A stretch of DNA of 64,000 bases from an uncultured delta proteobacterium (GTDB lineage: Bacteria; Desulfobacterota; Syntrophia; Syntrophales; Smithellaceae): the NCBI GenBank assembly GCA_963753975.1, contig CAVWEH010000005.1, positions 288,001-352,000 of the forward strand. The letters are read 5' to 3'. Below are positions 21,698 to 46,732 of this stretch, piece by piece. Position numbers and translations under genes: made by a program. Every line of letters starts with the position of its first letter. The first letter of the stretch is position 1. The notes beneath the pieces are model-generated. The model worked only from the letters and a program-made list of their open reading frames with translations, searched no databases and was not told the origin of the DNA.

Positions 21698-22810
21698 ATG
21701 AAATATAATCGTGAAAGAGGAAATAGCAGGTTTCGCTTTTTGGACAGGTATGTCGGCATTCTGATCATCTTTATATTAGGCTTGCTTAAGAAAAGAAGTA
21801 AACCCCTCCCAAAAAGCATAAAAAAGGTGGCTTTTTTGAAAACCGCAGGAATAGGGGATACTGCCCTCCTGTCCGCTGTTATCAGAGACTTCAAAGATGC
21901 CTATCCACATGTTCAGCTAACTTTTTTTGTCGCTTCCAATAATTATGAAATGGCACAGCTGATATCCGGAATCGATAAAATCATCAAACTCCCGGTGGCT
22001 AAACCTTTGACGTGTCTTCATATCATAAAGGAATCGGGTAAATATGATATCTGGGTTGATTTCGGCCCTTGGCCCAGGATCAATGCATTATTGTCGTGGT
22101 TTTCTAAGGCACGCCTTAAAGTTGGCTTCAAGACAAAAGGCCAGTACCGACATTACATATATGATTTAACTGTAGAACATTCCGCCCATCTGCATGAATT
22201 AGACAATTACAAAAACCTGCTGAAACAGCTAGGTTTAGATTGCCATAATCTCCCGTCTATCAACATGCAGATTCAGGAATGTAGTAATAACAGAATCATC
22301 ATTCACATGTTTCCCGGCGGGTCTCGATCATATTTAAAAGAATGGCCTGATGCAAATTGGATAGAAATTATAGATCAATTAACAGCACATCATTATGAAG
22401 TATTCCTTACGGGCGCGAAAATTGATCGTGAAAAAGCGGAGCAAATCAAAGCACAAATAGCGAACAGGGGCAGCGTCAATATTGTTGCCGGAACACTTAA
22501 TTTAAAACAAACCGCTGAACTCCTGAAATCATCAATGCTGGTAATCAGTGTAGATACCGGTATCATGCATTTAGCCTCCGCCCTAGGGTGCAACCTCATT
22601 GCCTTACATGGCCCTACGTCGGCCAAACGATGGGGTCCCCTGGACGCAAATGCAATTTCTTTGCAAAGTGGCCTGCAATGTTCTCCTTGCCTCAACCTGG
22701 GTTTTGAGAGCCGGTGTCGGACGAACTCCTGCATGAAATCCATTACTACCACAGCACTCATGGATGCCACAAAAAAATTCTGCCCGTCTGAGTTATCCTT
22801 AAATGTGTAA
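21698..22810 (+). CDS. GT9 LPS heptosyltransferase-family protein
   Basis: GIGD, KEWP, SVDTGIMHLASALG..LHGPT..WGP. Confidence 0.88.
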   Translation: MKYNRERGNSRFRFLDRYVGILIIFILGLLKKRSKPLPKSIKKVAFLKTAGIGDTALLSAVIRDFKDAYPHVQLTFFVASNNYEMAQLISGIDKIIKLPVAKPLTCLHIIKESGKYDIWVDFGPWPRINALLSWFSKARLKVGFKTKGQYRHYIYDLTVEHSAHLHELDNYKNLLKQLGLDCHNLPSINMQIQECSNNRIIIHMFPGGSRSYLKEWPDANWIEIIDQLTAHHYEVFLTGAKIDREKAEQIKAQIANRGSVNIVAGTLNLKQTAELLKSSMLVISVDTGIMHLASALGCNLIALHGPTSAKRWGPLDANAISLQSGLQCSPCLNLGFESRCRTNSCMKSITTTALMDATKKFCPSELSLNV

Positions 22811-22986
22811 TGGCTTTATTGTATTCTATGGAATTCAAGAAATCAATTTTGGTAAAGCTCATGTTGGTGTCCATTTGTCTATATCCCATATTATCTTCTT
22901 CAATCACCTAAACTTTAGAGGAATTATGTCAGAAAATAACCTTCAAATCAATCAATATTGATAATTATATCAATATATTAGTGTTG

Positions 22987-23468
22987 ACTACAATTTATTA
23001 CCGTAAATATGAGGATCACAGGTATAACGCCAAAGCAAGCTTTGGAAACATTTCGTAGCAAGCTGCGGGGTATTATACCCTCCGCATCGCGGGATAATTC
23101 GACCTCCAGTCTCAGCGGTGACGTGACCTTTAGGTTATGCACTCTGCTTCTGAAACTTGGGTATCATTGAAATAGTCCCACTTAGCTTCGCACGTGGGAT
23201 AATTTCCAATAGCCACCAGCTATTGGATAATTCGGCTAAAAAACTTCAATGCGCCTATAATGACCTTTAGGTTATTTGCTTTTGAAGTTTTAGTCTCATT
23301 ACAACTGACAGATATTACTGTACTGCGTTTGTGGAGCACCTCCGGAAGAAGCCGAAGGCTATTTTCAAAGACGCGACATCCCGTAACGGGATAATATCTG
23401 AGTTTCATTGGAATTGGAAGTTCACCAATAAAAAAGTTGAAGTTGCTGATTAGTTGTGCAAAAGTCTC
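22987..23468 (+). repeat. Long copy of junction repeat (other copies 34803-34871 and 50000-50197)
   Basis: Shared 5' block TATT.C.GTAA.TATGAGGAT and 3' block ATAAA.AAGTTGAA.TTG.TG.TTAGTTGTG.AAA.GT; internal hairpins. Confidence 0.75.
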
Positions 23469-23518
23469 GTATGATGAATAATAATATAACCGCACTAAAA
23501 TAATACAGAGGTGATTGA

Positions 23519-23878
23519 GTGCAAGTGAATCCTCATGCCGGGCGTCCAACGTCGCCTATGTCCTTGTTGCGTAGTCTCTGGCGCAACCGCCAACTCATCG
23601 CGCAAATGACCAAGCGCGAAGTAGTCGGTCGTTACAAGGGCTCGGTCCTGGGTATCGCCTGGTCATTCTTCAATCCCTTGATCATGCTTACCATCTATAC
23701 ATTTGTGTTCTCAGTTGTTTTCAAAGCCCGCTGGAATGTAAGTACTGATGAGACTAAAACGCAGTTTGCCATTGTGCTGTTTGTGGGCATGATCGTCCAT
23801 GGCCTTTTTGCCGAGGTGATCAACCGCGCACCAACGCTAATTACCTCTTTTGTAGAAGTGAGAAAATGCATCTTTTAA
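23519..23878 (+). pseudogene. wzm: Truncated duplicate of the wzm 5' end
   Basis: 23501-23848 matches 43399-43746 with 5 substitutions by eye; the ORF then runs into the pstS-like start. Confidence 0.85.
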
Positions 23879-24837
23879 AAAATACATTATTGAGTCGAAC
23901 TGTTCTCCTGATGATTTTATTTACCCTCTGTACTTGTGGACCGGGTGGCGATAAAGATAATAAAAAAAACAGTTCTCCGGGTACCATTCGCATATCGGGG
24001 GCTTGGGCGCTCTATCCCATGATGATTCGCTGGGCTGACGAATATAAAAAAACTCATCCGGGCTGTCAAATCGATGTCACTGCGGGCGGCGCCGGCAAAG
24101 GAGTAGCTGAAGCCCTTACAGGTCTGGTAGATATAGGCATGGTCTCCCGGGATATCAAACCCGAAGAAATACAGCGAGGCGCTAAATATATCCCTGTTGT
24201 CAAAGATGCTGTTTTCCCAATCATGAATGCGAACAATCCTGTCGCACGGGAAATGATGTTTAGGGGACTTACGAAGAAGCAATTCATCGGCCTTTGGATA
24301 GAGGGGAAAACGTTCACCTGGGGAGAATTAGCAAGTGTTACAAATGCTGCTATTGTTAATGTTTATACACGCTCTGATTCCTGTGGGGCAGCGGAAACAT
24401 GGGCGGCCTATCTGGGAAAACACCAGGAAGAGCTCCAGGGTGTAGGTGTTTATGGCGATCCCGGCATCACGGAAGCGGTAAAAAAAGACACGCTGGGTGT
24501 TGGATATAATAATCTGAACTATGCTTATGATATGAAAACGGGACTTCCGCAGAAAGGTGTCCGAATTATTCCCATCGACATCAATGAAAACGGACGGATT
24601 GATCCTGAAGAAGATGTAAGCACCAAAGAAAAAGCAATCCATGCAGTCCGTAAAGGACGCTACCCTTCGCCTCCGGCGCGCGACCTGAATATTGTTGTCA
24701 AAGGAAAATTTTCCGGAGCGGTTCGGGAATTTGTCCTCTGGATATTGAATGATGGGCAACAGTTCGTAGACGAAGTAGGCTATATCAAGCTCACTGATGC
24801 CCAAATCCAAGAAGCCTTCAGGAAGGTAAAAAATTGA
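23866..24837 (+). CDS. PstS-family oxyanion-binding lipoprotein, divergent (possibly sulfate-binding)
   Basis: Lipobox-like LCTC; PstS-type blocks SGAWALYP, GGAGKG, DIGMVSR, RSDSCGA; followed by pstC/A/B-like genes. Confidence 0.8.
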   Translation: MHLLKNTLLSRTVLLMILFTLCTCGPGGDKDNKKNSSPGTIRISGAWALYPMMIRWADEYKKTHPGCQIDVTAGGAGKGVAEALTGLVDIGMVSRDIKPEEIQRGAKYIPVVKDAVFPIMNANNPVAREMMFRGLTKKQFIGLWIEGKTFTWGELASVTNAAIVNVYTRSDSCGAAETWAAYLGKHQEELQGVGVYGDPGITEAVKKDTLGVGYNNLNYAYDMKTGLPQKGVRIIPIDINENGRIDPEEDVSTKEKAIHAVRKGRYPSPPARDLNIVVKGKFSGAVREFVLWILNDGQQFVDEVGYIKLTDAQIQEAFRKVKN

Positions 24838-25733
24838 AGAAAATTATTTACAGAAATATAAAAAGCGTCGGCGCCGGAGCGCTGATCCGTTTTTCCCTTT
24901 TTCTGCTTTACGGGATTGCGTTCCTGATCCTGGTTATCATCGCAGTCAAAGCCGCACCGATTCTGAACTCAATATCTCTGAAGCAACTGCTGTTCTCATC
25001 GGTCTGGCATCCTGAACAGGGGCAATTCGGTTTTTTACCTTTCATTTTTGGCTCGCTTGCCGTCACCGCCCTTGCCATGACCTTTGCAATACCTATCTGT
25101 TTGATGAGCACCGTTTATATTACGGAATACATGAATCATCGTCTGCGCAAATGGATTCGTTTGTCGATTGATATTCTAGCTGGTATTCCTTCCGTTATTT
25201 TCGGCCTCTTCGGTGTGTTGGCGATTGTGCCGGCGGTCCGGTTGCTTGGCGAATTGACCGGCAGACCCAGCACCGGATATAGCCTCCTGGCTGCAGGTAT
25301 TATCTTGGCATTGATGGTGAGCCCATTTATTATTTCTTTGTCCATTGAAGTGCTGACAAACGTTCCCGGAGAAGTAAGGGAAAGCGCCATTTCCTTAGGA
25401 GCTACTCGATGGGAAGTTATTTGGCATGTCCTGCTGAAAACAGCATGGCCGGGAATTGTTGCTGCCGTTGTCCTTGGTTTGGCCAGGGCTATTGGCGAAA
25501 CGATGGCTGTGATGATGGTAGCGGGCAACGTTGCCAAGATTTCCGGTCATCTGCTTGATCCTGTATATCCTTTACCGGCTCTGATTGCCAACAACTATGG
25601 AGAGATGATGTCGATTCCGAAATATGACTCGGCTCTGATGTTTGCCGCTTTAATCCTTATGGTGATAGTTGGAGGGTTCAGCTTTGCTGCTTACATGATT
25701 CTTCCCCGAATGCACAGGAGATATTCTTTTTAA
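24834..25733 (+). CDS. pstC: PstC-family ABC permease
   Basis: LAGIPSVIFGLFG, SLGATRWE, ARAIGETMAV.MVAGN. Confidence 0.85.
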   Translation: MKKIIYRNIKSVGAGALIRFSLFLLYGIAFLILVIIAVKAAPILNSISLKQLLFSSVWHPEQGQFGFLPFIFGSLAVTALAMTFAIPICLMSTVYITEYMNHRLRKWIRLSIDILAGIPSVIFGLFGVLAIVPAVRLLGELTGRPSTGYSLLAAGIILALMVSPFIISLSIEVLTNVPGEVRESAISLGATRWEVIWHVLLKTAWPGIVAAVVLGLARAIGETMAVMMVAGNVAKISGHLLDPVYPLPALIANNYGEMMSIPKYDSALMFAALILMVIVGGFSFAAYMILPRMHRRYSF

Positions 25734-26579
25734 ATGCTAAATCGTAAACAGCAAGAGATTTTTTTTAAGAGGTTGATGCAGCTTTCCTTGATTCTACTGC
25801 TTGGTCTGCTTGGCGGCATTGTTCTTGTGATATTACTCAGGGGGGCTTCCGCACTTAGTGTCTCCATGCTTATTGACACGCCAAAAGGAGGATATTACCT
25901 TGGTGGTGAAGGAGGGATTGCCAATGCAATTGCCGGTTCGCTGTGTCTTGCTTTTGGAGCATCTATATTAGCGCTGCTTTTCAGTCTGCCGGTTGCCTTT
26001 GCCTTGCAAAAAGAATATGCCAGTTCCCGCCTTGCCGCTATAAGCCGAATCGTCCTGGATGTCCTGTGGGGAACCCCTTCCATTGTTTACGGCGCTGTTG
26101 GCTTTGTGGTAATGGTCTATTTCGGTATTCGTGCCTCTCTGCTGGGCGGGATCTTCGTGCTGACCCTTCTGACCATGCCCATTATGATCCGCTCGATGGA
26201 AGAGATATTACACCTGGCTCCCAGGGAATTAAAGGAAATTGCCGTCTCGCTGGGCACGACGCGGTTGGAAACCGCCTGGATAGTTTTCAGGCAGGTTATT
26301 CCCGGTATAGTTACGGCCGTTATTCTCGCTTTCGGCCGGGCTATCGGAGATGCCGCATCAATCCTCTTTACGTCCGGATACACAGATAGTATGCCGCGCT
26401 CCCTGCTGGATCCGGTTGCTTCTTTACCGTTGGCCATCTTTTTCCAGATTGGAACACCCATCCCGGAAGTACAGGAACGGGCTTATGCTGCCGCGCTGGT
26501 TTTGCTTTTGATTGTCCTTATAGTCAATATTGCGGCAAGGATACTGAGTGAACGTTTCTCCAAGCACGTTATCCACTAG
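25734..26579 (+). CDS. pstA: PstA-family ABC permease
   Basis: GTPSIVYG, SLGTTR, FGRAIGDAA, AYAAALVL. Confidence 0.85.
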   Translation: MLNRKQQEIFFKRLMQLSLILLLGLLGGIVLVILLRGASALSVSMLIDTPKGGYYLGGEGGIANAIAGSLCLAFGASILALLFSLPVAFALQKEYASSRLAAISRIVLDVLWGTPSIVYGAVGFVVMVYFGIRASLLGGIFVLTLLTMPIMIRSMEEILHLAPRELKEIAVSLGTTRLETAWIVFRQVIPGIVTAVILAFGRAIGDAASILFTSGYTDSMPRSLLDPVASLPLAIFFQIGTPIPEVQERAYAAALVLLLIVLIVNIAARILSERFSKHVIH

Positions 26580-26590
26580 AAAATTAAATT

Positions 26591-27388
26591 ATGCCGCATA
26601 TACAATTACATAATCTATCTGTTCACTACGGCAATTTCCAAGTGCTCAACCAGATCACTCTCAATATTCCCGACCGCCAGATTGTGGCTATTATCGGTCC
26701 CTCCGGTTGCGGTAAAACGACATTGCTCAAGAGCATGAACCGGCTGCTGGATCTCTATGAAGAAGCAACACTAACCGGATCGGTAGTCATTGATGGAATA
26801 GATATTTATAATCCAGATGCCGATATTCTTGCCTTGCGGAAAAAGGTTGGTTTTCTTTCCCAGCGGCCTTATCCGCTACCTATGTCGATTTACAACAATG
26901 TCGCTTTCGGACCGAAGATTCACGGACTAAACGGCAAGGCAATATCCAAAAATTCAGCAACACCAATTTCCCAAAGTGCCGAATCCACAATAGATTATTG
27001 TGTCGAACACTATTTGCAACTTGCCGGTCTCTGGGACGAGGTGAAGGACCGCTTACATAGTCCTGCAGCGAAACTTTCCATTGGTCAGTTGCAGCGTCTG
27101 GCACTGGCCAGAACCCTGGCTGTGGAACCGGAGGTTATCCTCGCTGATGAACCCACCTCGGCATTAGATCCAATTTCCGCCAAGATTGTAGAGTCCCAGT
27201 TTAGAATCTTAAAACAGGACTATACCATTGTTGTTGTGACCCATATCCTTCGCCAGGCAAGACGCCTTGCCGATTACGTGGTTTTTATGTTTATGGGTGA
27301 AGTGGTGGAGTATGGACCAGCCGAAGATATATTCAATGCCCCGAAAGATGAACGGACACGGGCCTATATTTCAGGAGAAATCAGCTGA
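26591..27388 (+). CDS. pstB: PstB-family ABC ATPase
   Basis: Walker A GPSGCGKT, variant signature LSIGQLQR, ADEPTSALDP, VTH, P.DERTRAYISG. Confidence 0.88.
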   Translation: MPHIQLHNLSVHYGNFQVLNQITLNIPDRQIVAIIGPSGCGKTTLLKSMNRLLDLYEEATLTGSVVIDGIDIYNPDADILALRKKVGFLSQRPYPLPMSIYNNVAFGPKIHGLNGKAISKNSATPISQSAESTIDYCVEHYLQLAGLWDEVKDRLHSPAAKLSIGQLQRLALARTLAVEPEVILADEPTSALDPISAKIVESQFRILKQDYTIVVVTHILRQARRLADYVVFMFMGEVVEYGPAEDIFNAPKDERTRAYISGEIS

Positions 27389-27389
27389 C

Positions 27390-28316
27390 ATGTCTTTTTA
27401 TAGTATGCCTTACCTGAAGCAGCTCGAATCGGAATCCATCTATATTCTGCGGGAAGTGGCCGCGGAATTTAAAAACCCTGTTTTGCTATACTCTGTGGGT
27501 AAGGACTCCAGCGTACTGGTGCGCCTGGCTCTAAAGGCTTTTTATCCCGGCAAGATTCCATTCCCCCTGATGCATGTAGATACCGGCTTCAAGTTTCCGG
27601 AAATGTATGCCTTTAGGGATGCTTTCTGCAAGAAGCTGGATGTCCGGCTGATTGTGGAGCGCAACGAGGAGTGGATTGCCAAAGGGTGTCATCCCCTCAA
27701 GATGGGTGTTGATAAATGTTGCAGCCATCTCAAGACCGGGGCATTGCTCACAGCCATTAAAAAACATGGCTTTGATGCGGCCATCGGCGGGGCAAGAAGA
27801 GAAGAAGAAAAATCACGAGCCAAAGAACGTGTCTTTTCCCTTCGGGATGCTTTCGGTCAGTGGGATCCGAAGAATCAGCGGCCGGAGGTCTGGGATCTAT
27901 ACAATACCCGTATTAATGAAGGAGAAACAGTGCGCGTCTTTCCTCTCAGCAACTGGACAGAAAAGGATATCTGGCAGTACATCAAACTGGAAAATATACC
28001 GGTTGTGCCCATCTATTTTGCCCTGGAGCGGAAAGTCGTCCGGCGTAACGGTATTTTGATTCCACTTTCGGCAGCGTCGGTAATTGACGAACATTCTGCT
28101 GGTCATACAGGGAGCGAACCGGTGGAAACAGTGCGCTGCCGTTTCCGAAGTCTGGGATGCATTCCTTGCACTGGAGCTATTGCTTCGACAGCGACGAGCA
28201 TTGACGAGATCATTGCAGAAGTTATCATGGCCAAAAAGTCCGAGCGGGAAAACCGTGTAATCGATTTAACCAGCGATGCCTCCATGGAACAAAAGAAGAA
28301 AGAGGGATACTTTTGA
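27390..28316 (+). CDS. cysD: Sulfate adenylyltransferase subunit 2
   Basis: YSVGKDS, GGARREEEKSRAKER, WDPKNQRPE, KKKEGYF; ATG 1 nt after the pstB-like stop. Confidence 0.95.
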   Translation: MSFYSMPYLKQLESESIYILREVAAEFKNPVLLYSVGKDSSVLVRLALKAFYPGKIPFPLMHVDTGFKFPEMYAFRDAFCKKLDVRLIVERNEEWIAKGCHPLKMGVDKCCSHLKTGALLTAIKKHGFDAAIGGARREEEKSRAKERVFSLRDAFGQWDPKNQRPEVWDLYNTRINEGETVRVFPLSNWTEKDIWQYIKLENIPVVPIYFALERKVVRRNGILIPLSAASVIDEHSAGHTGSEPVETVRCRFRSLGCIPCTGAIASTATSIDEIIAEVIMAKKSERENRVIDLTSDASMEQKKKEGYF

Positions 28317-30217
28317 CAACAACCAAGGAAAAAACTCTGCTGCGTTTTTCCACAACCGGTAGTGTGGACGATGGCAAGTCAACGCTGCTCGGGCGGCTGT
28401 TGTACGAAACAAAGACCATTTTCGAAGATCAGTATGCCGCTATAGAAAAAACCTCGCGAAAAAAGGGATTGGCCGAAGTTGACCTGGCGCTCCTTTTGGA
28501 TGGCTTGTCGGCGGAGCGGGAACAGGGAATTACGATTGATGTTGCCCATCGCTATTTCGAGACATCTTCAAGAAAGTTTATTATTACGGACAGCCCCGGT
28601 CATGTTCAATATACCAAAAATATGATCACCGGAGCTTCAACAGCCGACTGCGCCATTATTCTCATCGACGCTCGCAACGGCGTCCTTACCCAATCCAAAC
28701 GTCATGGATTCATTGTATCGCTCCTGCGGATTCCCCATTTGGTTGTGGCCATAAACAAGATGGATCTAGTGGAATATTCTGAAAATGTTTATAACCAAAT
28801 CGTCGAGCAATATACGGACTTTTCCGAAAAACTGGATATTCATGATATTGTCTTTATCCCGGTTTCCGCTCTCAAGGGCGACAATGTGGTGGAGAAAAGC
28901 AATAACATGCCCTGGTATGAAGGCGGCACGTTGCTCCATTATCTGGAGAATGTGCACGTTTCCGCCGACCGGAACCTGGTGGACTTCCGTTTTCCCGTTC
29001 AGTATGTTATCCGGCCGCATCAGGATTTCCGGGGCTTTGCCGGCAAGATTGTTTCCGGTACTTTGAGCCCGGGAGAGGAGATTGTCGTCCTTCCCTCGGG
29101 AAAAACGACGCGGGTGCGTTCTGTAGTAACCTATGATGGAGAACTATCAGAAGCCTTTGCCCCGCAATCTGTTGTGTTGACCTTCGAAGACGAGGTTGAC
29201 GTCAGCCGGGGCAATATGATCGTCAGGAAGAATAATCTTCCCCAGGTTGGAACGAGCTTTGAGGGCATGATCTGCTGGATGGATGATGTTCCCCTGTCCC
29301 TCAACAAGCCGTATCTTTTACAGCATACAACAAGGATTGTTAAAGCTTTTGTTTCCAGAATCGTTTATCTCGTGGATGTGAACAATCTCCATCGCCATCA
29401 GACAGAATCCCTCTCTCTTAACGATATCGGCCGGGTTGAGTTTGAAGTGACCTCGCCAATCTTTTGTGATCCTTATAAAATTAACCGTGGTACCGGCTGT
29501 TTTATTCTAATCGATCCCCTGACGCAGCACACAGTGGCGGCAGGTATGATTCGTGGTTTATCCCGAACAGTCGATGATATTGTTCCGAGAGATGAGAATA
29601 TATCGTCCAAGCAATACAAATCTCCGCACACGGTTTGGAGGGATTGGAACATTGATCGTCAGGCCAGGGAAGCCCGCAACCAGCACAAGGCCGCGGTGCT
29701 ATGGCTTACCGGATTATCCGGAGCGGGAAAATCAACTGTCGCCATGGCTCTGGAAAAAACACTTTTTCAATTAGGTTGCCAAACCATGCTTTTGGACGGG
29801 GATCAGCTTCGCCACGGCCTATCAGCAGATCTTGGATTTTCCGGAAAAGACCGGGAAGAAAATATCCACAGAGCTGCTCAAGTGGCGAGGTTGTTTTTCG
29901 AATCCGGGCATTTGGTCATTTGCACATTCATTTCTCCTTTTGCCAAAGACAGAGCCGTTGCCCGTTTACTAATTCCCGAAGGACGATTTTTTGAAATCTA
30001 TGTATCGTGCGATCTGGCTGTGTGCAAACGGCGTGATCCCAACGGATTATATGAGAAGGCCGTGCGTGGAGAAATTAAAAATTTTACCGGCGTATCATCA
30101 CCGTATGAAGCGCCGGATAATCCGGAAATCCTGTTGAATACAGATGTGCAGAGCGTAGAAGACAGCGTTGCCTGTATTATGGATATGCTGAAGAAGCGTG
30201 AAATTATAAGGCGCTAA
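28313..30217 (+). CDS. cysNC: Bifunctional sulfate adenylyltransferase subunit 1 / APS kinase (NodQ-like)
   Basis: GSVDDGKST, EREQGITID, NKMD; C-terminal WLTGLSGAGKST, LLDGD, NFTGVSSPYEAP. Confidence 0.95.
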   Translation: MTTTKEKTLLRFSTTGSVDDGKSTLLGRLLYETKTIFEDQYAAIEKTSRKKGLAEVDLALLLDGLSAEREQGITIDVAHRYFETSSRKFIITDSPGHVQYTKNMITGASTADCAIILIDARNGVLTQSKRHGFIVSLLRIPHLVVAINKMDLVEYSENVYNQIVEQYTDFSEKLDIHDIVFIPVSALKGDNVVEKSNNMPWYEGGTLLHYLENVHVSADRNLVDFRFPVQYVIRPHQDFRGFAGKIVSGTLSPGEEIVVLPSGKTTRVRSVVTYDGELSEAFAPQSVVLTFEDEVDVSRGNMIVRKNNLPQVGTSFEGMICWMDDVPLSLNKPYLLQHTTRIVKAFVSRIVYLVDVNNLHRHQTESLSLNDIGRVEFEVTSPIFCDPYKINRGTGCFILIDPLTQHTVAAGMIRGLSRTVDDIVPRDENISSKQYKSPHTVWRDWNIDRQAREARNQHKAAVLWLTGLSGAGKSTVAMALEKTLFQLGCQTMLLDGDQLRHGLSADLGFSGKDREENIHRAAQVARLFFESGHLVICTFISPFAKDRAVARLLIPEGRFFEIYVSCDLAVCKRRDPNGLYEKAVRGEIKNFTGVSSPYEAPDNPEILLNTDVQSVEDSVACIMDMLKKREIIRR

Positions 30218-36312: not shown

Positions 36313-36368
36313 GGAGGATTCAATGCCATACCCAGTTGACCTGATATCTATTTTTGTTGGAGGCTTTT

Positions 36369-37280
36369 ATGAAATATGCTTTGCCTAATCTTTTTGTAAT
36401 TGGTGCACCCAAATCGGGCACCTCTGCTTTGGTGCACGCATTGGGCCAACATCCGGATATTTATGTACCTTTAAAAAAAGAGTTAAGATACTTTGATGCT
36501 CGTACATTTTATGATTATAAAGAAGACTATCCAATCAAATCTATTGATGATTATTTATCATTCTATAAATCGCCAGATGCCAAAGATGCATCGTATAGAG
36601 TAGATGGTAGTGTTTATAATATGTATAGTCCAGAATCTATCAAAAACATATTAGAGTTTTCCTCTAATGCTAAATTTATTATAATGCTTAGAGATCCTGT
36701 AATGGCATCTAAGTCAATGCATGCGCAAAGATTGAAATACGGCTCTGGCGGCATGCGGGAAATCTCCGACGATTTTTGCACGTGCTGGAAAAGTCTTGAA
36801 ATGAGAAAATTGGGGAAAATGTACCCTAAGCACTGCCGAAACAAATTTCTTTTTAGATATGATCTTTTATACTCATATGAATTATATGTTCCAAAAATTT
36901 TAAGCATGGTTTCACCAAAGAATATCTATATAGGTAGACATGAGCAGCTTAAAAGCAATCCTGTAACCGTATATAAAGATATTTTTTCATTTCTTAATGT
37001 CAAATTTGATTTTATACCCGAAACAAAAATAATAAATCCGTCTTATATTATTAAGTCAACATTATATAATAAAATAGCTCGTCATTTAGCTGGCAAAAGC
37101 TTAAGATTGAGAAAGTCAATGGGTTTATCTGGCAAAAGAGTTGACATGTTTGCGAAATTGATTTTTCAAAAAATCGAAACGACGCATTACGCTAATTCTT
37201 ATTGTGATAATGAGGTCCGTGCCTTTTTCCAAAGCACATACAAATTTCTGGATACTCTTCAAATCTTAAATAGAGGTTAA
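36369..37280 (+). CDS. PAPS-dependent sulfotransferase
   Basis: 5'-PSB loop IGAPKSGTSAL, KE..YF, 3'-PB motif LRDPV..S.S; GGAGG RBS. Confidence 0.85.
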   Translation: MKYALPNLFVIGAPKSGTSALVHALGQHPDIYVPLKKELRYFDARTFYDYKEDYPIKSIDDYLSFYKSPDAKDASYRVDGSVYNMYSPESIKNILEFSSNAKFIIMLRDPVMASKSMHAQRLKYGSGGMREISDDFCTCWKSLEMRKLGKMYPKHCRNKFLFRYDLLYSYELYVPKILSMVSPKNIYIGRHEQLKSNPVTVYKDIFSFLNVKFDFIPETKIINPSYIIKSTLYNKIARHLAGKSLRLRKSMGLSGKRVDMFAKLIFQKIETTHYANSYCDNEVRAFFQSTYKFLDTLQILNRG

Positions 37281-38730: not shown

Positions 38731-39684
38731 ATGATGTTCTTTTTACCTAAAAAAAACAAACCCATTTCCACCCTGCCTAATTTCCTAATCGTTGGAGCAC
38801 AAAGATGCGGCACGACCTCACTGTATTACTACCTACAGCAGCATCCTGATGTCTATATGAGTCCGATCAAGGAGCCTAAATTTCTAAGCAATCGCGCGGC
38901 CAACCAGGGTAGAGGTCCCGGTGACTATTTAATTACGCAAAGCAGTGTGAGCTCATTTGACAATTACCGCAAACTGTTTGAAAAAAGTGTTGGCAAGAAA
39001 GCGGTGGGTGAGGCCAGTGTGGATACCATGTTTTTTTATCAAGAGGCCATACCGGCCGTTAAACGTCATCTGGGCGATCCGCGGATTATCATTATTCTAA
39101 GAGATCCGGTGAAACGCGCCTATTCCGCTTATAATTTTCTGGTCCGTGATGGCTGGGAATATCTGCCCTTTGCGGACACCCTGAACCAGGAGGAGCGGCG
39201 CAAGCGCGACGGATATTGCTGGCATTGGCTTTATCGCGAAGTCGGCTTGTATGCCGGCCAGGTGCGCGCCTTTCAAGAAAACTTCAGCCGGGTGTCTGTC
39301 CTGTTCTATGATGATCTGAAAATCAATGCCGACGCACTGATGCGGTCTGTATTCACATTTCTTGACATAAACCCCGATTTCGTTTCGTACATCAGCCACA
39401 GACACAATATTTCCGGTATTCCTCGCTGGTCATTTCTGAATGCGCTTTTCGTCAAACCCAAGCGGCTGCACAAAGTAGCCCGCGCCGTCGGTGGAGCGAT
39501 ATTAGGTGCTGATCGATGGGTTCGCCTGCGCGAGCATCTTCGTTCCACTATTCTGCAAAAGCCCGAAGCTATCGATCCTGAAATAGAACAACAACTCAGG
39601 CTGTTCTATCGCGATGATATTCTTAAGCTGCAGGACTACATCGGTAGAGACTTGAGTTCGTGGCTCGAGAAAGAACATAGATGA
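38731..39684 (+). CDS. PAPS-dependent sulfotransferase
   Basis: VGAQRCGTTSL, QHPDV..SPIKEP.F, GEAS, LRDPVKRAYS. Confidence 0.88.
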   Translation: MMFFLPKKNKPISTLPNFLIVGAQRCGTTSLYYYLQQHPDVYMSPIKEPKFLSNRAANQGRGPGDYLITQSSVSSFDNYRKLFEKSVGKKAVGEASVDTMFFYQEAIPAVKRHLGDPRIIIILRDPVKRAYSAYNFLVRDGWEYLPFADTLNQEERRKRDGYCWHWLYREVGLYAGQVRAFQENFSRVSVLFYDDLKINADALMRSVFTFLDINPDFVSYISHRHNISGIPRWSFLNALFVKPKRLHKVARAVGGAILGADRWVRLREHLRSTILQKPEAIDPEIEQQLRLFYRDDILKLQDYIGRDLSSWLEKEHR

Positions 39685-43092: not shown

Positions 43093-43416
43093 TCATGCCG
43101 AATGATTTCAGGAAATGAGGATATTGTTGATTGTCCAGGCTAACACCCGCTATTACTGGATAGAAATTTTTCAGATCTGCGCCGGATTTTCCTTCAGGGT
43201 CTTCCCCTGGGCACGGCCATGCTTTTGATGGCTTTGCCGTATCAGGGTCCTTTGATTATTAGCTCAGCCGGTTGTCATAGCTATAAACGGGTTAAGAAAT
43301 CCGAATATAAGTCATGATCTTTAAAAATATTTCAAAATCCTTCGGCTTGTAAAAAGAAGTAAAATAATGTTAGCTTTTAATATAATCAAACCAACAGGTA
43401 ATACAGAGGTGATTGA

Positions 43417-44254
43417 GTGCAGGTGAATCCTCATGCCGGGCAACCAACGTCGCCTATGTCCTTGTTGCGTAGTCTCTGGCGCAACCGCCAACTCATCGCG
43501 CAAATGACCAAGCGCGAAGTAGTCGGTCGTTACAAGGGCTCGGTCTTGGGTATCGCCTGGTCATTCTTCAATCCCTTGATCATGCTTACCATCTATACAT
43601 TTGTGTTCTCAGTTGTTTTCAAAGCCCGCTGGAATGTAAGTACTGATGAGACTAAAACGCAGTTTGCCATTGTGCTGTTTGTGGGCATGATCGTCCATGG
43701 CCTTTTTGCCGAGGTGATCAACCGCGCACCAACGCTGATTACCTCTAACGTAAATTTTGTTAAAAAAGTTGTATTCCCGTTGGATATTTTGCCATCAGTT
43801 GCTATAGGAGCAGCTCTTTTCCACAGCTTCGTCAGTCTTGGCGTACTCATGGTTGCCTTATGTATTATTTAACGGTTACCTGAATTGGACGATAATATTC
43901 ATCCCCTTAGTGTTGTTGCCGCTTACTATCCTTACTCTTGGTTTTGCCTGGATGCTGGCATCACTGGGTGTATTCCTTCGTGATTTAGGGCAAACCACCG
44001 GCATTATCACTATGATAATGATGTTTGCCTCCCCCATCTTTTATCCGGTGACGGCGTTGCCGGCAGCATTGCGCCCCTGGATTATGGCCAATCCGCTCAC
44101 CTTCATTATCGAGCAGGCTCGCGCAGTGCTGATCTGGGGACATTTGCCGAACTGGATAGGCTTGGGCATTTACACACTTACCGCCACTGTAGTCGCCTGG
44201 CTGGGCTATGTCTGGTTCCAGAAGACCAGAAAAGGATTTGCCGATGTCCTCTAA
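43417..44254 (+). CDS. wzm: Polysaccharide ABC exporter permease, +1 frameshift near 43858
   Basis: REVVGRYKGSVLG.AWS, VKKVVFP, FLRD, SPIFYP, NPL, F..TRKGFADVL. Confidence 0.9.
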
Positions 44255-45662
44255 TGATATTGCTATACGAGTCAGCAATCTGGGCAAATGTTACGAGATT
44301 TACAACAATCCGCGTGACCGGCTCAAACAATTTGTCATTCCTCGCCTACAGCGGCTTTTCGGACAGCCTCCCAGGCAATACTTCCGCGAGTTCTGGGCGT
44401 TGAAGGATGTCTCTTTTGAAGTAAAGAAAGGCGAAACTGTCGGCATCATCGGACGCAATGGCTCGGGTAAATCCACCCTGCTGCAACTTATTTGTGGAAC
44501 GCTGACACCTACTATTGGAACCGTCGAAACAAATGGCCGCATCGCAGCCTTACTTGAACTGGGTTCCGGATTTAACCCGGAATTTACCGGACGCGAAAAT
44601 GTTTTTATGAATGCCGCTGTGCTGGGTTTAAGTAACAAAGAAATCGACGCTCGCTATGATGACATCGTTGTCTTCGCCGACATCGGACAGTTCATTGAAC
44701 AGCCTGTCAAAACTTACTCTAGTGGTATGATTGTGCGGCTGGCGTTTGCAGTCGCCATCAGTGTTGACCCACAAATACTCATAGTGGATGAAGCGCTCTC
44801 GGTAGGCGACGAGATGTTTCAGCGCAAATGCTTCTCGCGTATTGAAGCCATTAAGAAAAATGGCGCTACTATCCTGTTTGTTTCACACTCAGGGAGTGTG
44901 ATAGTGGAACTTTGTGACCATGCTATGCTCCTGGAGTCAGGCGAAGAACTGGCAATGGGAGTTCCGAAAACTATCGTCGGAAAATACCAAAAACTGATTT
45001 ATGCTCCTCAGGATAAGCGTCATGCCATACTCGAAGAGATACGCGCATCCGGGGTCGGTGGCCGGGCTCGTTCGGCTTCTCAAACATTGCCGGCAACATC
45101 ATCTCCGTCACCCGGTGAAAAAAATGTCACTGACAATGATCTAGAAAATTTTTTCGATCCTAACCTCAAACCACAGAGCACCTTAGAATATGAATCACAC
45201 GGGGCTTACATCATGTCCCCAGAAATACTTACCGTGTCCGGCGAAAAAGTGAATTGCCTCAAACGCGGCAAGAGTTATCGTTATACGTACAAAGTTAGGT
45301 TCGATAAGGCTTCAACCAATGTCCGCTTCGGTATGATGATTAAAACTATCTCTGGTTTGGAGCTAGGTGGCGCAGCATCTGTTCCTCATACTGGTCAGGG
45401 CATTACTTATCTATCGCCGGGAACAATGGTCAGCGTTGAATTCCGATTTACCTGCAATTTAAACCCGGGTTCGTACTACCTCAATGCAGGCGTGATGGGA
45501 AGTAATCGTGAAGGAATGGAAACCTTTTTACATCGTGTACTGGACCTTTGTATGTTCAAGGTAATGCCTGTTTCCAAGAATACTACAACCGCAATAATAG
45601 ATTTCAACTGTGTAGCAGAAATTGAACTTATGAATAATCCCTTGCAGAAAGTTGTAACATAA
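44244..45662 (+). CDS. wzt: Polysaccharide ABC exporter ATPase with C-terminal carbohydrate-binding domain
   Basis: GRNGSGKST, YSSGM, ILIVDEALSVGD; beta-rich C-terminal domain (LNPGSYYLNAGV). Confidence 0.92.
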   Translation: MSSNDIAIRVSNLGKCYEIYNNPRDRLKQFVIPRLQRLFGQPPRQYFREFWALKDVSFEVKKGETVGIIGRNGSGKSTLLQLICGTLTPTIGTVETNGRIAALLELGSGFNPEFTGRENVFMNAAVLGLSNKEIDARYDDIVVFADIGQFIEQPVKTYSSGMIVRLAFAVAISVDPQILIVDEALSVGDEMFQRKCFSRIEAIKKNGATILFVSHSGSVIVELCDHAMLLESGEELAMGVPKTIVGKYQKLIYAPQDKRHAILEEIRASGVGGRARSASQTLPATSSPSPGEKNVTDNDLENFFDPNLKPQSTLEYESHGAYIMSPEILTVSGEKVNCLKRGKSYRYTYKVRFDKASTNVRFGMMIKTISGLELGGAASVPHTGQGITYLSPGTMVSVEFRFTCNLNPGSYYLNAGVMGSNREGMETFLHRVLDLCMFKVMPVSKNTTTAIIDFNCVAEIELMNNPLQKVVT

Positions 45663-46732
45663 TGAACCAAGAAAACAAGAAACGCGTTATCGTCGTTCTC
45701 GGTATGCATCGCAGCGGCACCAGTGCCGTTACGCGTGGGCTCAAAGTACTCGGAGTGGATTTAGGTAACAATCTTCTAGGCCCTCTTGTCAACGATAACG
45801 TGAAGGGGTTTTGGGAAGACTTTGATCTTATGACGCTGAATATCGAGATGTTAAGCGTTATAGGCAGTGATTGGCACTATCTTGCTCCTATTCAACCCAA
45901 CGATATCGAAGTTTTACGGAAAAAAGGTTACTTCCTTCGTGCGGTTGAATTGTTACGCCTGAAGATTGGTAATGTACCTATTTTTGGGTTCAAAGATCCG
46001 CGCGTAGCAAAGTTACTTCCATTTTGGAAAGAGGTATTTAGCCAATGTCAATTAGATGTGAGCTACGTGCTGACTATACGCCACCCCCTCAGCGTGGTCA
46101 AGTCTTTGGCCAAGCGAAATGGTTTTGATCCGGGAAAGAGCTATCTACTTTGGTTGGGACATGTGATCGCTAGTTTGTCAATGACCGTTAATGAAAAGTG
46201 CGTAATTATCGATTATGATCGTCTGATGCAATCACCGGATTACGAATTGAATCGTATTGCAAAAAATCTCAATTTGGCAATTGATCCGACCGAGCTGCAA
46301 AGCTACAAAAGCGAGTTTCTTGATCAAGTCCTGCGGCACACGGTTTACGATCCTAGTGATTTATCGTCGGATGAAGCAAGCCCTCCGCTTATCCGGGAAA
46401 TTTACTCCGAACTTTTGGAAGCAGCGTCGGATAAAAAAAAGGTTGATGATCTATCCCTACATAAGAAAATCAATATCTGGGTAAGTGAATTTGAACGCCT
46501 TAAAACACCTTTAACTCTACTTGATAAGCTTACAAAAACCATACTTGAACGGGATGGGCGGATCGCCACTCTCAATCAGGCATTGGTAGAGATTGCAAGT
46601 AGCAGGGCATGGAAATTAGTAACAGTATTGCGTAAGATAAGAACGTGCTTAACCCCGAAAGATAGCTATCGCGAACATCTTGCAAAAAAAGTATGGCGTG
46701 GAATCAAAAATGAAAAATCCCATAAAAATTAA
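45662..46732 (+). CDS. Sulfotransferase-family protein with coiled-coil/amphipathic tail (candidate chain terminator)
   Basis: LGMHRSGTS, KDPR, RHPLSV..SL; tail ERDGRIATLNQAL...SSRAWKL. Confidence 0.7.
   Translation: MNQENKKRVIVVLGMHRSGTSAVTRGLKVLGVDLGNNLLGPLVNDNVKGFWEDFDLMTLNIEMLSVIGSDWHYLAPIQPNDIEVLRKKGYFLRAVELLRLKIGNVPIFGFKDPRVAKLLPFWKEVFSQCQLDVSYVLTIRHPLSVVKSLAKRNGFDPGKSYLLWLGHVIASLSMTVNEKCVIIDYDRLMQSPDYELNRIAKNLNLAIDPTELQSYKSEFLDQVLRHTVYDPSDLSSDEASPPLIREIYSELLEAASDKKKVDDLSLHKKINIWVSEFERLKTPLTLLDKLTKTILERDGRIATLNQALVEIASSRAWKLVTVLRKIRTCLTPKDSYREHLAKKVWRGIKNEKSHKN

Follow-up and report, generated by a model that had tools for sequence, protein, structure and literature searches.

A Pst-type transporter cassette joined to cysD-cysNC in a Smithellaceae genome is a probable sulfate importer

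The cassette and its junction with sulfate-activation genes

We analysed a 64,000-nucleotide (nt) stretch of contig CAVWEH010000005.1 from a Smithellaceae genome (labelled G000). This stretch is called the window, and coordinates without a contig or locus label are positions in it, on the + strand. Six open reading frames (ORFs) lie in series in the window: four that resemble the phosphate transporter genes pstS, pstC, pstA and pstB, followed without a gap by cysD and cysNC. The four transporter genes probably encode a Pst-derived importer of sulfate. We infer this substrate from the fold of the binding protein, the clade to which it belongs, the loss of the phosphate proton acceptor, the absence of phoU from the neighbourhood and the links to sulfur genes. 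The six genes, separated by -4, 0, 11, 1 and -4 nt, are as follows.

23866..24837, + strand: PstS-fold binding protein of the GA[W/F]AL / GGAGKG / RSD[A/S]CGA clade; 323 amino acids, with an N-terminal hydrophobic segment
24834..25733, + strand: PstC-like permease; TIGR02138 above cut-off; equivalents of Arg237 and Glu241 kept
25734..26579, + strand: PstA-like permease; equivalent of Arg220 kept, Glu224 replaced by Asp (GDAA)
26591..27388, + strand: PstB-like ATPase, with the signature LSIGQ at 27074-27088; from an NCBIfam scan and signature alignment
27390..28316, + strand: cysD, ATP sulfurylase small subunit; ATG at 27390, 1 nt past the pstB-like stop
28313..30217, + strand: cysNC, fused ATP sulfurylase large subunit and adenosine 5'-phosphosulfate (APS) kinase, which makes 3'-phosphoadenosine 5'-phosphosulfate (PAPS); PRK05506

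These coordinates and spacings agree with the direct joining of the pst-like genes to cysD-cysNC given in a preliminary description of the window. Among the NCBIfam models, the four transporter genes are nearest to PstS, PstC, PstA and PstB. The products of the pstC-like gene, cysD and cysNC exceed the cut-offs (cysNC scores 906 bits against 715 for PRK05506), and among the transporter genes only the pstC-like one does so; the binding protein (105.7 vs 206.6 bits, TIGR02136), the PstA-like permease (174 vs 193 bits) and the PstB-like ATPase (311 vs 343 bits) fall below. The nearest loci in named genomes are those of Smithellaceae and Syntrophaceae. In related Syntrophales-type loci, cysD starts -1 to +2 nt from the pstB stop in all 9 that were checked, and contigs from four DNA sequencing runs of relatives span pstA-pstB-cysD and cysD-cysN.

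The signs of Pho regulation lie elsewhere in the genome. As had been stated, phoU is outside the window, its only match in the genome being on contig C4, and no phoBR was seen in the window by inspection of ORF starts, without a dedicated search. Two pho-box-like patterns gave no match at 22810-23866, in line with the pho box reported as missing at the cassette; patterns of this kind did match upstream of the canonical pstS on contig C4.

A separate clade of binding proteins

The PstS tree proposed in the preliminary description was built with a quick IQ-TREE run on 111 clade rows and 17 canonical or sister rows, omitting loci shorter than 8 kb, L015, L016, L112 and two thirds of the controls. 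In this tree, the binding protein and its relatives formed a single branch with an SH-aLRT support of 99. Compared with paired canonical loci, clade loci more often have sulfate-activation genes as neighbours. The clade was matched in 8 of 301 genomes of Bacteroidota, 5 of 301 from the phylum to which the window belongs, 10 of 121 KSB1 genomes and 6 of 151 Omnitrophota genomes, and in 91 of the 251 genomes of the order of G001, a Bacteroidota genome. In addition, one metagenome locus bearing the cassette carries an archaeal elongation factor 1 alpha (EF-1 alpha). The sources call clade proteins 'phosphate transport system substrate-binding protein', which would be the mislabelling that had been foreseen. 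Binding proteins with a divergent pocket, orphan or duplicated, also occur in Bacteroidota (L112, L120, L109 and L133).

The 158 clade loci examined below comprise 64 sampled from genomes, 14 nearest to the query and 80 from metagenomes, many of them short. The 64 are made up of 6 of the 8 Bacteroidota matches (leaving out G001, counted elsewhere, and one divergent orphan), 40 order-level loci and all 18 new matches from three other phyla; the order-level loci are the first 40 of the 91 matches with E <1e-100 and a leading contig of at least 8 kb. As controls, 40 canonical pstS loci were taken from 39 of the same genomes and from G000.

Loss of the phosphate ligands from the pocket

The AlphaFold model of the binding protein has a mean predicted local distance difference test score (pLDDT) of 86.5. 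Its best fold matches are the phosphate-binding proteins 4omb, 4gd5 and 4q8r (Z ~26; root-mean-square deviation, rmsd, 2.2-2.7 A; 237-264 residues), and the ESM Atlas returned phosphate-named clusters only. Sbp and CysP are absent from the 50 fold matches listed, which leaves a likeness to them possible. The top sequence and fold matches, all of them phosphate-binding proteins, favour the explanation that the cassette is still a phosphate importer, a low-affinity and Pho-independent paralogue with another binding mode and a merely historical link to cys genes. We regard this as very improbable, as the pocket and the neighbourhoods both speak against it.

The motifs described earlier (GAWAL, GGAGKG, GMVSR and RSDSCGA in the binding protein, LSIGQ in the ATPase) are all present, and alignment to the fetched E. 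coli pstS confirmed T10W, S38A, D56S, S139C and T141A with R135 kept. The mapping onto E. coli PstS thus holds, but the S-type PstS proteins (PBP-1, SphX) are a better comparator, and their use makes the case stronger. C. perfringens PBP-1 binds its ligand through Ser11, Thr12, Ser13, Ser41, Ser59, Arg125, Ser129, Gly130 and Thr131, and Ser13 is proposed to accept the proton (PMC5381212). The HMMER equivalents are Ala46, Trp47, Ala48, Ala76, Ser94, Arg169, Cys173, Gly174 and Ala175, a mapping made by sequence alignment.

23998..24012, + strand: pocket motif 1, GAWAL; Ala46/Trp47/Ala48 for PBP-1 Ser11/Thr12/Ser13
24085..24102, + strand: pocket motif 2, GGAGKG; Ala76 for PBP-1 Ser41
24370..24390, + strand: pocket motif 3, RSDSCGA; Arg169 kept, Cys173 and Ala175 for Ser129 and Thr131
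24577..24612, + strand: EF-hand-like loop, residues 238-249; absent from canonical PstS

The clade shares this pocket. Ala46, Ala48 and Ala175 are found in all 158 loci and Ala76 in 157, position 47 is Trp in 93 and Phe in 65, and position 173 is Cys in 150, Ser in 5 and Ala in 3. Clade-wide, five of the seven Ser/Thr ligands of PBP-1 are lost, Ser129 has become Cys and only Ser59 (Ser94) is retained; Ser94, Arg169, Asp114 and Arg272 are conserved in 158 of 158. Neither known kind of proton acceptor is left: the D-type Asp56 is gone (Ser94), and the Ser and Thr of the S-type triad are gone (Ala48, Ala175) from every locus, each of which retains the Asp-Arg pair of that triad (Asp114, Arg272). 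In the canonical controls, of which 14 of 40 proteins were alignable, Ser or Thr occupies positions 46, 48 and 76 in 14/14 and positions 173 and 175 in 13/14.

Published mutants bear on the same positions. Thr17Ala in SphX (position 48 here) abolishes the binding of inorganic phosphate (Pi), Thr148Ala (position 175 here) lowers it, and Ser13Ala in PBP-1 causes a ~30-fold loss, for which Thr131 is proposed to compensate (PMC13614923). The residual binding of the last mutant (PMC13614923) could be taken in favour of a phosphate substrate; in the clade, however, both acceptor positions and three more hydroxyls are lost jointly, in 157-158 of 158. In the same study, there was no response to sulfate from either Synechocystis protein (PMC13614923).

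Because sulfate has no proton to donate, an acceptor-free pocket should hold SO4(2-) and not HPO4(2-). A site composed of backbone NH groups, Arg169 and Ser94 would do so in the way of Sbp. Such a pocket also suits molybdate or tungstate, and these are among the substrates of another explanation, in which the cassette carries a non-sulfur oxyanion (molybdate, tungstate, nitrate, phosphite) or its substrate varies by subclade, being sulfate only in the cys-linked ones. The divergent relatives, which differ at the pocket and in two cases (L112, L120) are without permeases, fit that explanation, but the pocket of the core clade is nearly invariant in linked and unlinked loci alike, and we think it quite unlikely.

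Sbp binds sulfate via Asp11, Ser45, Ser130, Gly131, Gly132, Ala173 and Trp192 (PMC7177696). The suggestion that a Trp indole donates to sulfate, as Trp192 does in Sbp, was not borne out, because Trp47 aligns with Sbp Tyr10 and not with Trp192; the frequent Phe at position 47 likewise shows that the indole is no part of the signal.

The EF-hand-like pattern is matched by 139 of the 158 clade proteins, and this acidic loop may bind Ca2+. A similar acidic loop occurs in the S-type relatives P0183, P0188 and P0251. Three representatives of 50% clusters combine retained S-type hydroxyls with an acidic loop after the hinge, which suggests that they belong to the lineage that gave rise to the clade; their placement is unsettled by the tree.

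The ATPase signature is [L/M]S[I/V/L/A/T]GQ in 111 of 111 alignable clade ATPases, compared with LSGGQ in 29 of 36 controls. A dead ATPase is an unlikely meaning of LSIGQ, judging from the retained signature Ser and second Gly, Walker B and H-loop and from the presence of the variant throughout the clade. In the PstA-like permease, the change of Glu224 to Asp (GDAA) is also clade-wide.

Gene neighbourhoods of the clade

One tblastn marker panel was run on every locus, clade and control. A phoU gene was found beside the cassette in 0 of 158 clade loci, in contrast to 34 of 40 canonical pstS loci, which argues against a phosphate importer. Sulfur-core genes were present at 12 of the 64 genome-sampled clade loci and an Rrf2 gene at 12, one or the other at 21, and the figure for the 40 controls was 0 in all three cases. 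Sulfur-core genes also occur at 9 of the 14 loci nearest to the query and, in the metagenome loci, at 16 of 80 (Rrf2, 19 of 80). On the tree, the sulfur link requires 18 gains or losses, at least 11 of them forced by well-supported branches; this recurrence counts against phosphate as the substrate.

Both kinds of ATP sulfurylase are linked to the cassette, namely CysDN, and Sat with CysC. The architectures vary. Syntrophales loci have cysD-cysNC, and in L106, L111 and L119 cysH-cysD-cysN is accompanied by genes for sulfite reductase and siroheme. L057 has sat and cysC, L146 has cysK and a sulfite reductase gene, and L170 and L171 have cysH and a sulfhydrylase gene. What the linked genes share is the activation of sulfate, carried out by two unrelated ATP sulfurylases. 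This bears on the possibility that the substrate is another sulfur or selenium oxyanion, mainly thiosulfate, or sulfate together with thiosulfate, with Cys173 contacting the outer sulfur. The links to CysK, Rrf2 and TauE suit any sulfur source, but the commonest neighbours are these two types of sulfurylase, which act on sulfate, and G000 and its kin couple the cassette to a PAPS-only module without reductases. Among the clustered neighbours, no YeeE or rhodanese family was recurrent, and we consider this possibility unlikely. No molybdenum- or nitrate-specific family was recurrent among them either, which counts against a non-sulfur substrate.

Within the order of G001 (251 genomes), cysD was present in 83 of 91 clade-bearing genomes and 96 of 160 others, whereas canonical PstS had no such effect: in clade-negative genomes, cysD occurred in 17 of 28 with canonical PstS and 79 of 132 without. 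Canonical PstS itself was found in 39 of the 91 clade-bearing genomes vs 28 of the 160 others. Replacement of canonical PstS by the clade can be rejected on this positive co-occurrence, which also opposes a phosphate substrate. The clade was not found as the sole Pst system linked to phoU, the finding that the preliminary description had named as adverse to it; it accompanies canonical PstS. An Sbp/CysP match was obtained in 1 of 69 clade genomes, a figure not controlled for a general rarity of these proteins in the phyla concerned.

All three of the Rrf2 neighbours that were scanned lie above the Rrf2 superfamily cut-off and below the CymR and IscR cut-offs, and 29 of 33 Rrf2 rows (two of which represent one locus) have at least 3 Cys. 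At some loci, a sigma-54 activator (in KSB1) or a NarL-type two-component pair (in Bacteroidota) recurs next to the cassette instead of Rrf2 (L161, L163, L164, L166, L167; L134, L142, L143, L148, L152).

A gene of PF01663 (phosphodiesterase/alkaline-phosphatase superfamily) stands beside cysD/cysN or sat/cysC in L022, L030, L042, L057 and L156, and its product may act in the use or turnover of PAPS. The recurrence of this family in 7 loci could be read as a sign of phosphate metabolism, but in the 5 such loci inspected the gene adjoins cysD/N or sat/cysC. At L042:6564-7829, L052 and L065 (archaeal-type), the GTPase adjacent to cysD is nearer to EF-1 alpha than to CysN models, below both cut-offs, and appears to be a CysN-like paralogue of EF-1 alpha. 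In L119 and L170, the neighbours of the cassette are genes for ThiF/MoeZ, a JAB protease and sulfite reductase, joined in L170 by a sulfhydrylase gene; we take this set to resemble the sulfur-carrier pathway that leads to homocysteine. Three types of outer-membrane protein (alginate-export-like, Porin O/P-like, DUF2490) are encoded repeatedly within the cassette, at L107, L109, L110, L136, L159 and L166, and may be dedicated anion porins.

Sulfur genes of the source genome and the proposed role

The source genome is 95.1% complete. The separate canonical pstSCAB-phoU system that was sought in it is present on contig C4, in the order response regulator, pstS, pstC, pstA, pstB, phoU, histidine kinase, and the PstS encoded there has the ordinary motifs GATFP, GSGGG, GASDA and RSDGSGT. 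The genome also has a PiT transporter, scoring closer to PitA than to the CysP sulfate permease, and a TupABC-like system whose matches are below cut-offs; this separate system is a further point against molybdate or tungstate as the substrate of the cassette. No match to Sbp, SulP or DASS was obtained in G000, and CysH and sulfite reductase were not found there. At G000:C1:125510-129407, an Rrf2 gene is followed by an mnmA-like gene, a split sulfhydrylase and cysK, indicating sulfide-based cysteine synthesis elsewhere in the source genome.

The window is a surface-glycan cluster, with the following presumed consumers of PAPS.

36354..37280, + strand: sulfotransferase-family protein, presumed PAPS consumer; PF13469 above cut-off
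38731..39684, + strand: sulfotransferase-family protein, presumed PAPS consumer; PF13469 above cut-off
45662..46732, + strand: possible third sulfotransferase; PF13469 24.8 bits, cut-off 27

We propose that the cassette is a type I ATP-binding cassette (ABC) importer that would have arisen from an S-type PstSCAB ancestor, with the binding protein retuned to sulfate and with permeases and an ATPase that would retain a generic oxyanion pathway. In the source genome, imported sulfate would pass through CysD and CysNC to APS and PAPS and then to the sulfotransferases of the surface-glycan cluster. In the absence of CysH and sulfite reductase, CysDNC can make PAPS but apparently cannot feed reduction, and we route sulfate to PAPS here on the ground that neither an APS/PAPS reductase nor a sulfite reductase turned up. 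Other lineages would use the importer to supply the synthesis of cysteine or homocysteine, in many cases with Rrf2 as its regulator. Of the earlier proposal, a Pst-derived sulfate importer for glycan sulfation, the importer is therefore supported, while the PAPS and glycan role is confined to this lineage, since relatives link the cassette to full assimilatory reduction.

Several observations weigh against sulfate as the substrate. First, Cys173 aligns with Ser130, the sole side-chain hydroxyl donor of Sbp, which argues against a simple Sbp-like site. The change Ser130Cys in Salmonella Sbp is reported to weaken sulfate binding strongly. Cysteine-based recognition of thiosulfate is known from YeeE/TsuA, and the Cys in the pocket of 150 of the 158 clade proteins would suit that anion. 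Second, the permeases retain the equivalents of PstC Arg237/Glu241 and PstA Arg220, which PMC12976172 names as determinants of Pi specificity and which would favour phosphate. However, the R..GE motif is also present in E. coli CysU, CysW and ModB, and the arginines do not discriminate, because the motif is common to all of these. Third, 43 of the 64 genome-sampled loci are without a sulfur-core gene or Rrf2 within ~8 kb, and unrelated neighbours at most loci agree with a non-sulfur or mixed substrate; several marker queries were derived from clade loci, and the loci and genomes are kin, so that the counts are not independent and p-values drawn from them are too favourable. Fourth, 52 of the 91 clade-bearing genomes have no TIGR02136 PstS over the cut-off. 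Finally, in the source genome, the canonical pstB on contig C4 (G000:C4:81441-82291, L212) is split by two frameshifts within ~120 nt, representing decay or an assembly error, which gives some room to a phosphate role of the cassette, and four TauE/TSUP matches offer a possible alternative supply of sulfate.

Comparison with known systems

The nearest relatives are the S-type PstS proteins (PBP-1, 4Q8R/4GD5; Synechocystis SphX), which give the best sequence matches and a fold match at Z 26 and rmsd 2.2 A, and with which the protein shares Ser59, Arg125 and, from the triad, the Asp-Arg pair. Unlike them, the binding protein has Ala/Trp/Ala/Ala/Ala for Ser11, Thr12, Ser13, Ser41 and Thr131, Cys for Ser129, no remaining proton acceptor and an additional EF-hand-like loop. 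The cassette resembles E. coli PstSCAB-PhoU (9K3X; PMC12976172) in its four-gene layout and membrane-site arginines, with identities of 31-32% for the permeases and 44% for the ATPase, but differs in the missing Asp56 acceptor, the absence of phoU (0/158) and of a pho-box-like match, the LS[I/V/L/A/T]GQ signature and the coupling to cys genes. It thus descends from PstSCAB yet fails the defining pocket and regulatory features of that system.

With Sbp/CysP-CysUWA (SulT), the cassette has in common the proposed substrate and binding logic, with mainly backbone NH donors and no proton acceptor (PMC7177696), an aromatic residue at the Tyr10 position, a GG[S/A]GK second motif and the cys-operon context. 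In contrast, blastp to Sbp/CysP gave E ~7, TIGR00971 was negative, the permeases and ATPase are nearer to PstCAB with CysT, CysW and CysA models far below cut-offs, and the pocket has an Arg, a Cys for Ser130 and a Trp47 that does not correspond to Trp192. The cassette would resemble Sbp/CysPUWA in the way it works but does not belong to that family. It is also unlike ModABC, TupABC and WtpABC, as the permeases are far below the ModB and WtpB cut-offs and the binding protein has no ModA or TupA match. A precedent for a phosphate-to-sulfate switch exists in the PiT phosphate-transporter family, to which the sulfate permease CysP of B. subtilis belongs; there the switch was likewise accompanied by loss of conserved phosphate residues (PMC5840216). 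This CysP differs in being a secondary carrier of unrelated fold and characterised function.

On balance, we consider it reasonably likely that the clade represents a so far unrecognised family of sulfate importers, widespread and driven by ATP, whose origin lies within PstSCAB and is independent of Sbp/CysPUWA. Its Arg/Ser/Cys pocket would be unlike that of any solved sulfate-binding protein, and it would provide the high-affinity sulfate uptake that has been missing from many Bacteroidota, KSB1, Omnitrophota and Syntrophales and from some archaea. A literature search covering titles and abstract openings, with most subscription journals outside its scope, found no description of a Pst-derived sulfate importer or of this clade. 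PstS is the textbook case of discrimination against sulfate. If our reading is true, a natural clade with the reversed preference would reveal the small number of changes by which a single scaffold switches its selectivity between phosphate and sulfate. It would also add a family of sulfate uptake to the five recognised in the available text of PMC5840216, in which Pst is not mentioned. The annotation would need correction, and many microbes may carry the same mislabel. Since the clade occurs under phosphate names in 91 of 251 genomes of one Bacteroidota order, sulfur genes may be among the pstS genes that are counted to gauge phosphorus stress in anoxic metagenomes.

Local rearrangement upstream of the cassette

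A fragment of wzm is fused directly to the cassette on its upstream side, and its ORF overlaps the start of the binding-protein gene by 13 nt.

23482..23848, + strand: truncated 5' duplicate of wzm; 367 nt, 96.7% nt identity to 43378-43746

The closest relative, L001, has wzm-wzt after cysNC and a different gene ahead of the binding protein, so the cluster has been rearranged, and the region upstream of wzm may now serve the cassette. The full-length wzm (43417-44251) has a frameshift near 43860 relative to L001. Farther upstream, at 23015-23435, lie dispersed repeats of ~130 nt, resembling miniature inverted-repeat transposable elements (MITE) or repetitive extragenic palindromic (REP) sequences, with many copies on 5 of 6 contigs; they include a 15-nt direct repeat at a spacing of 137 nt.

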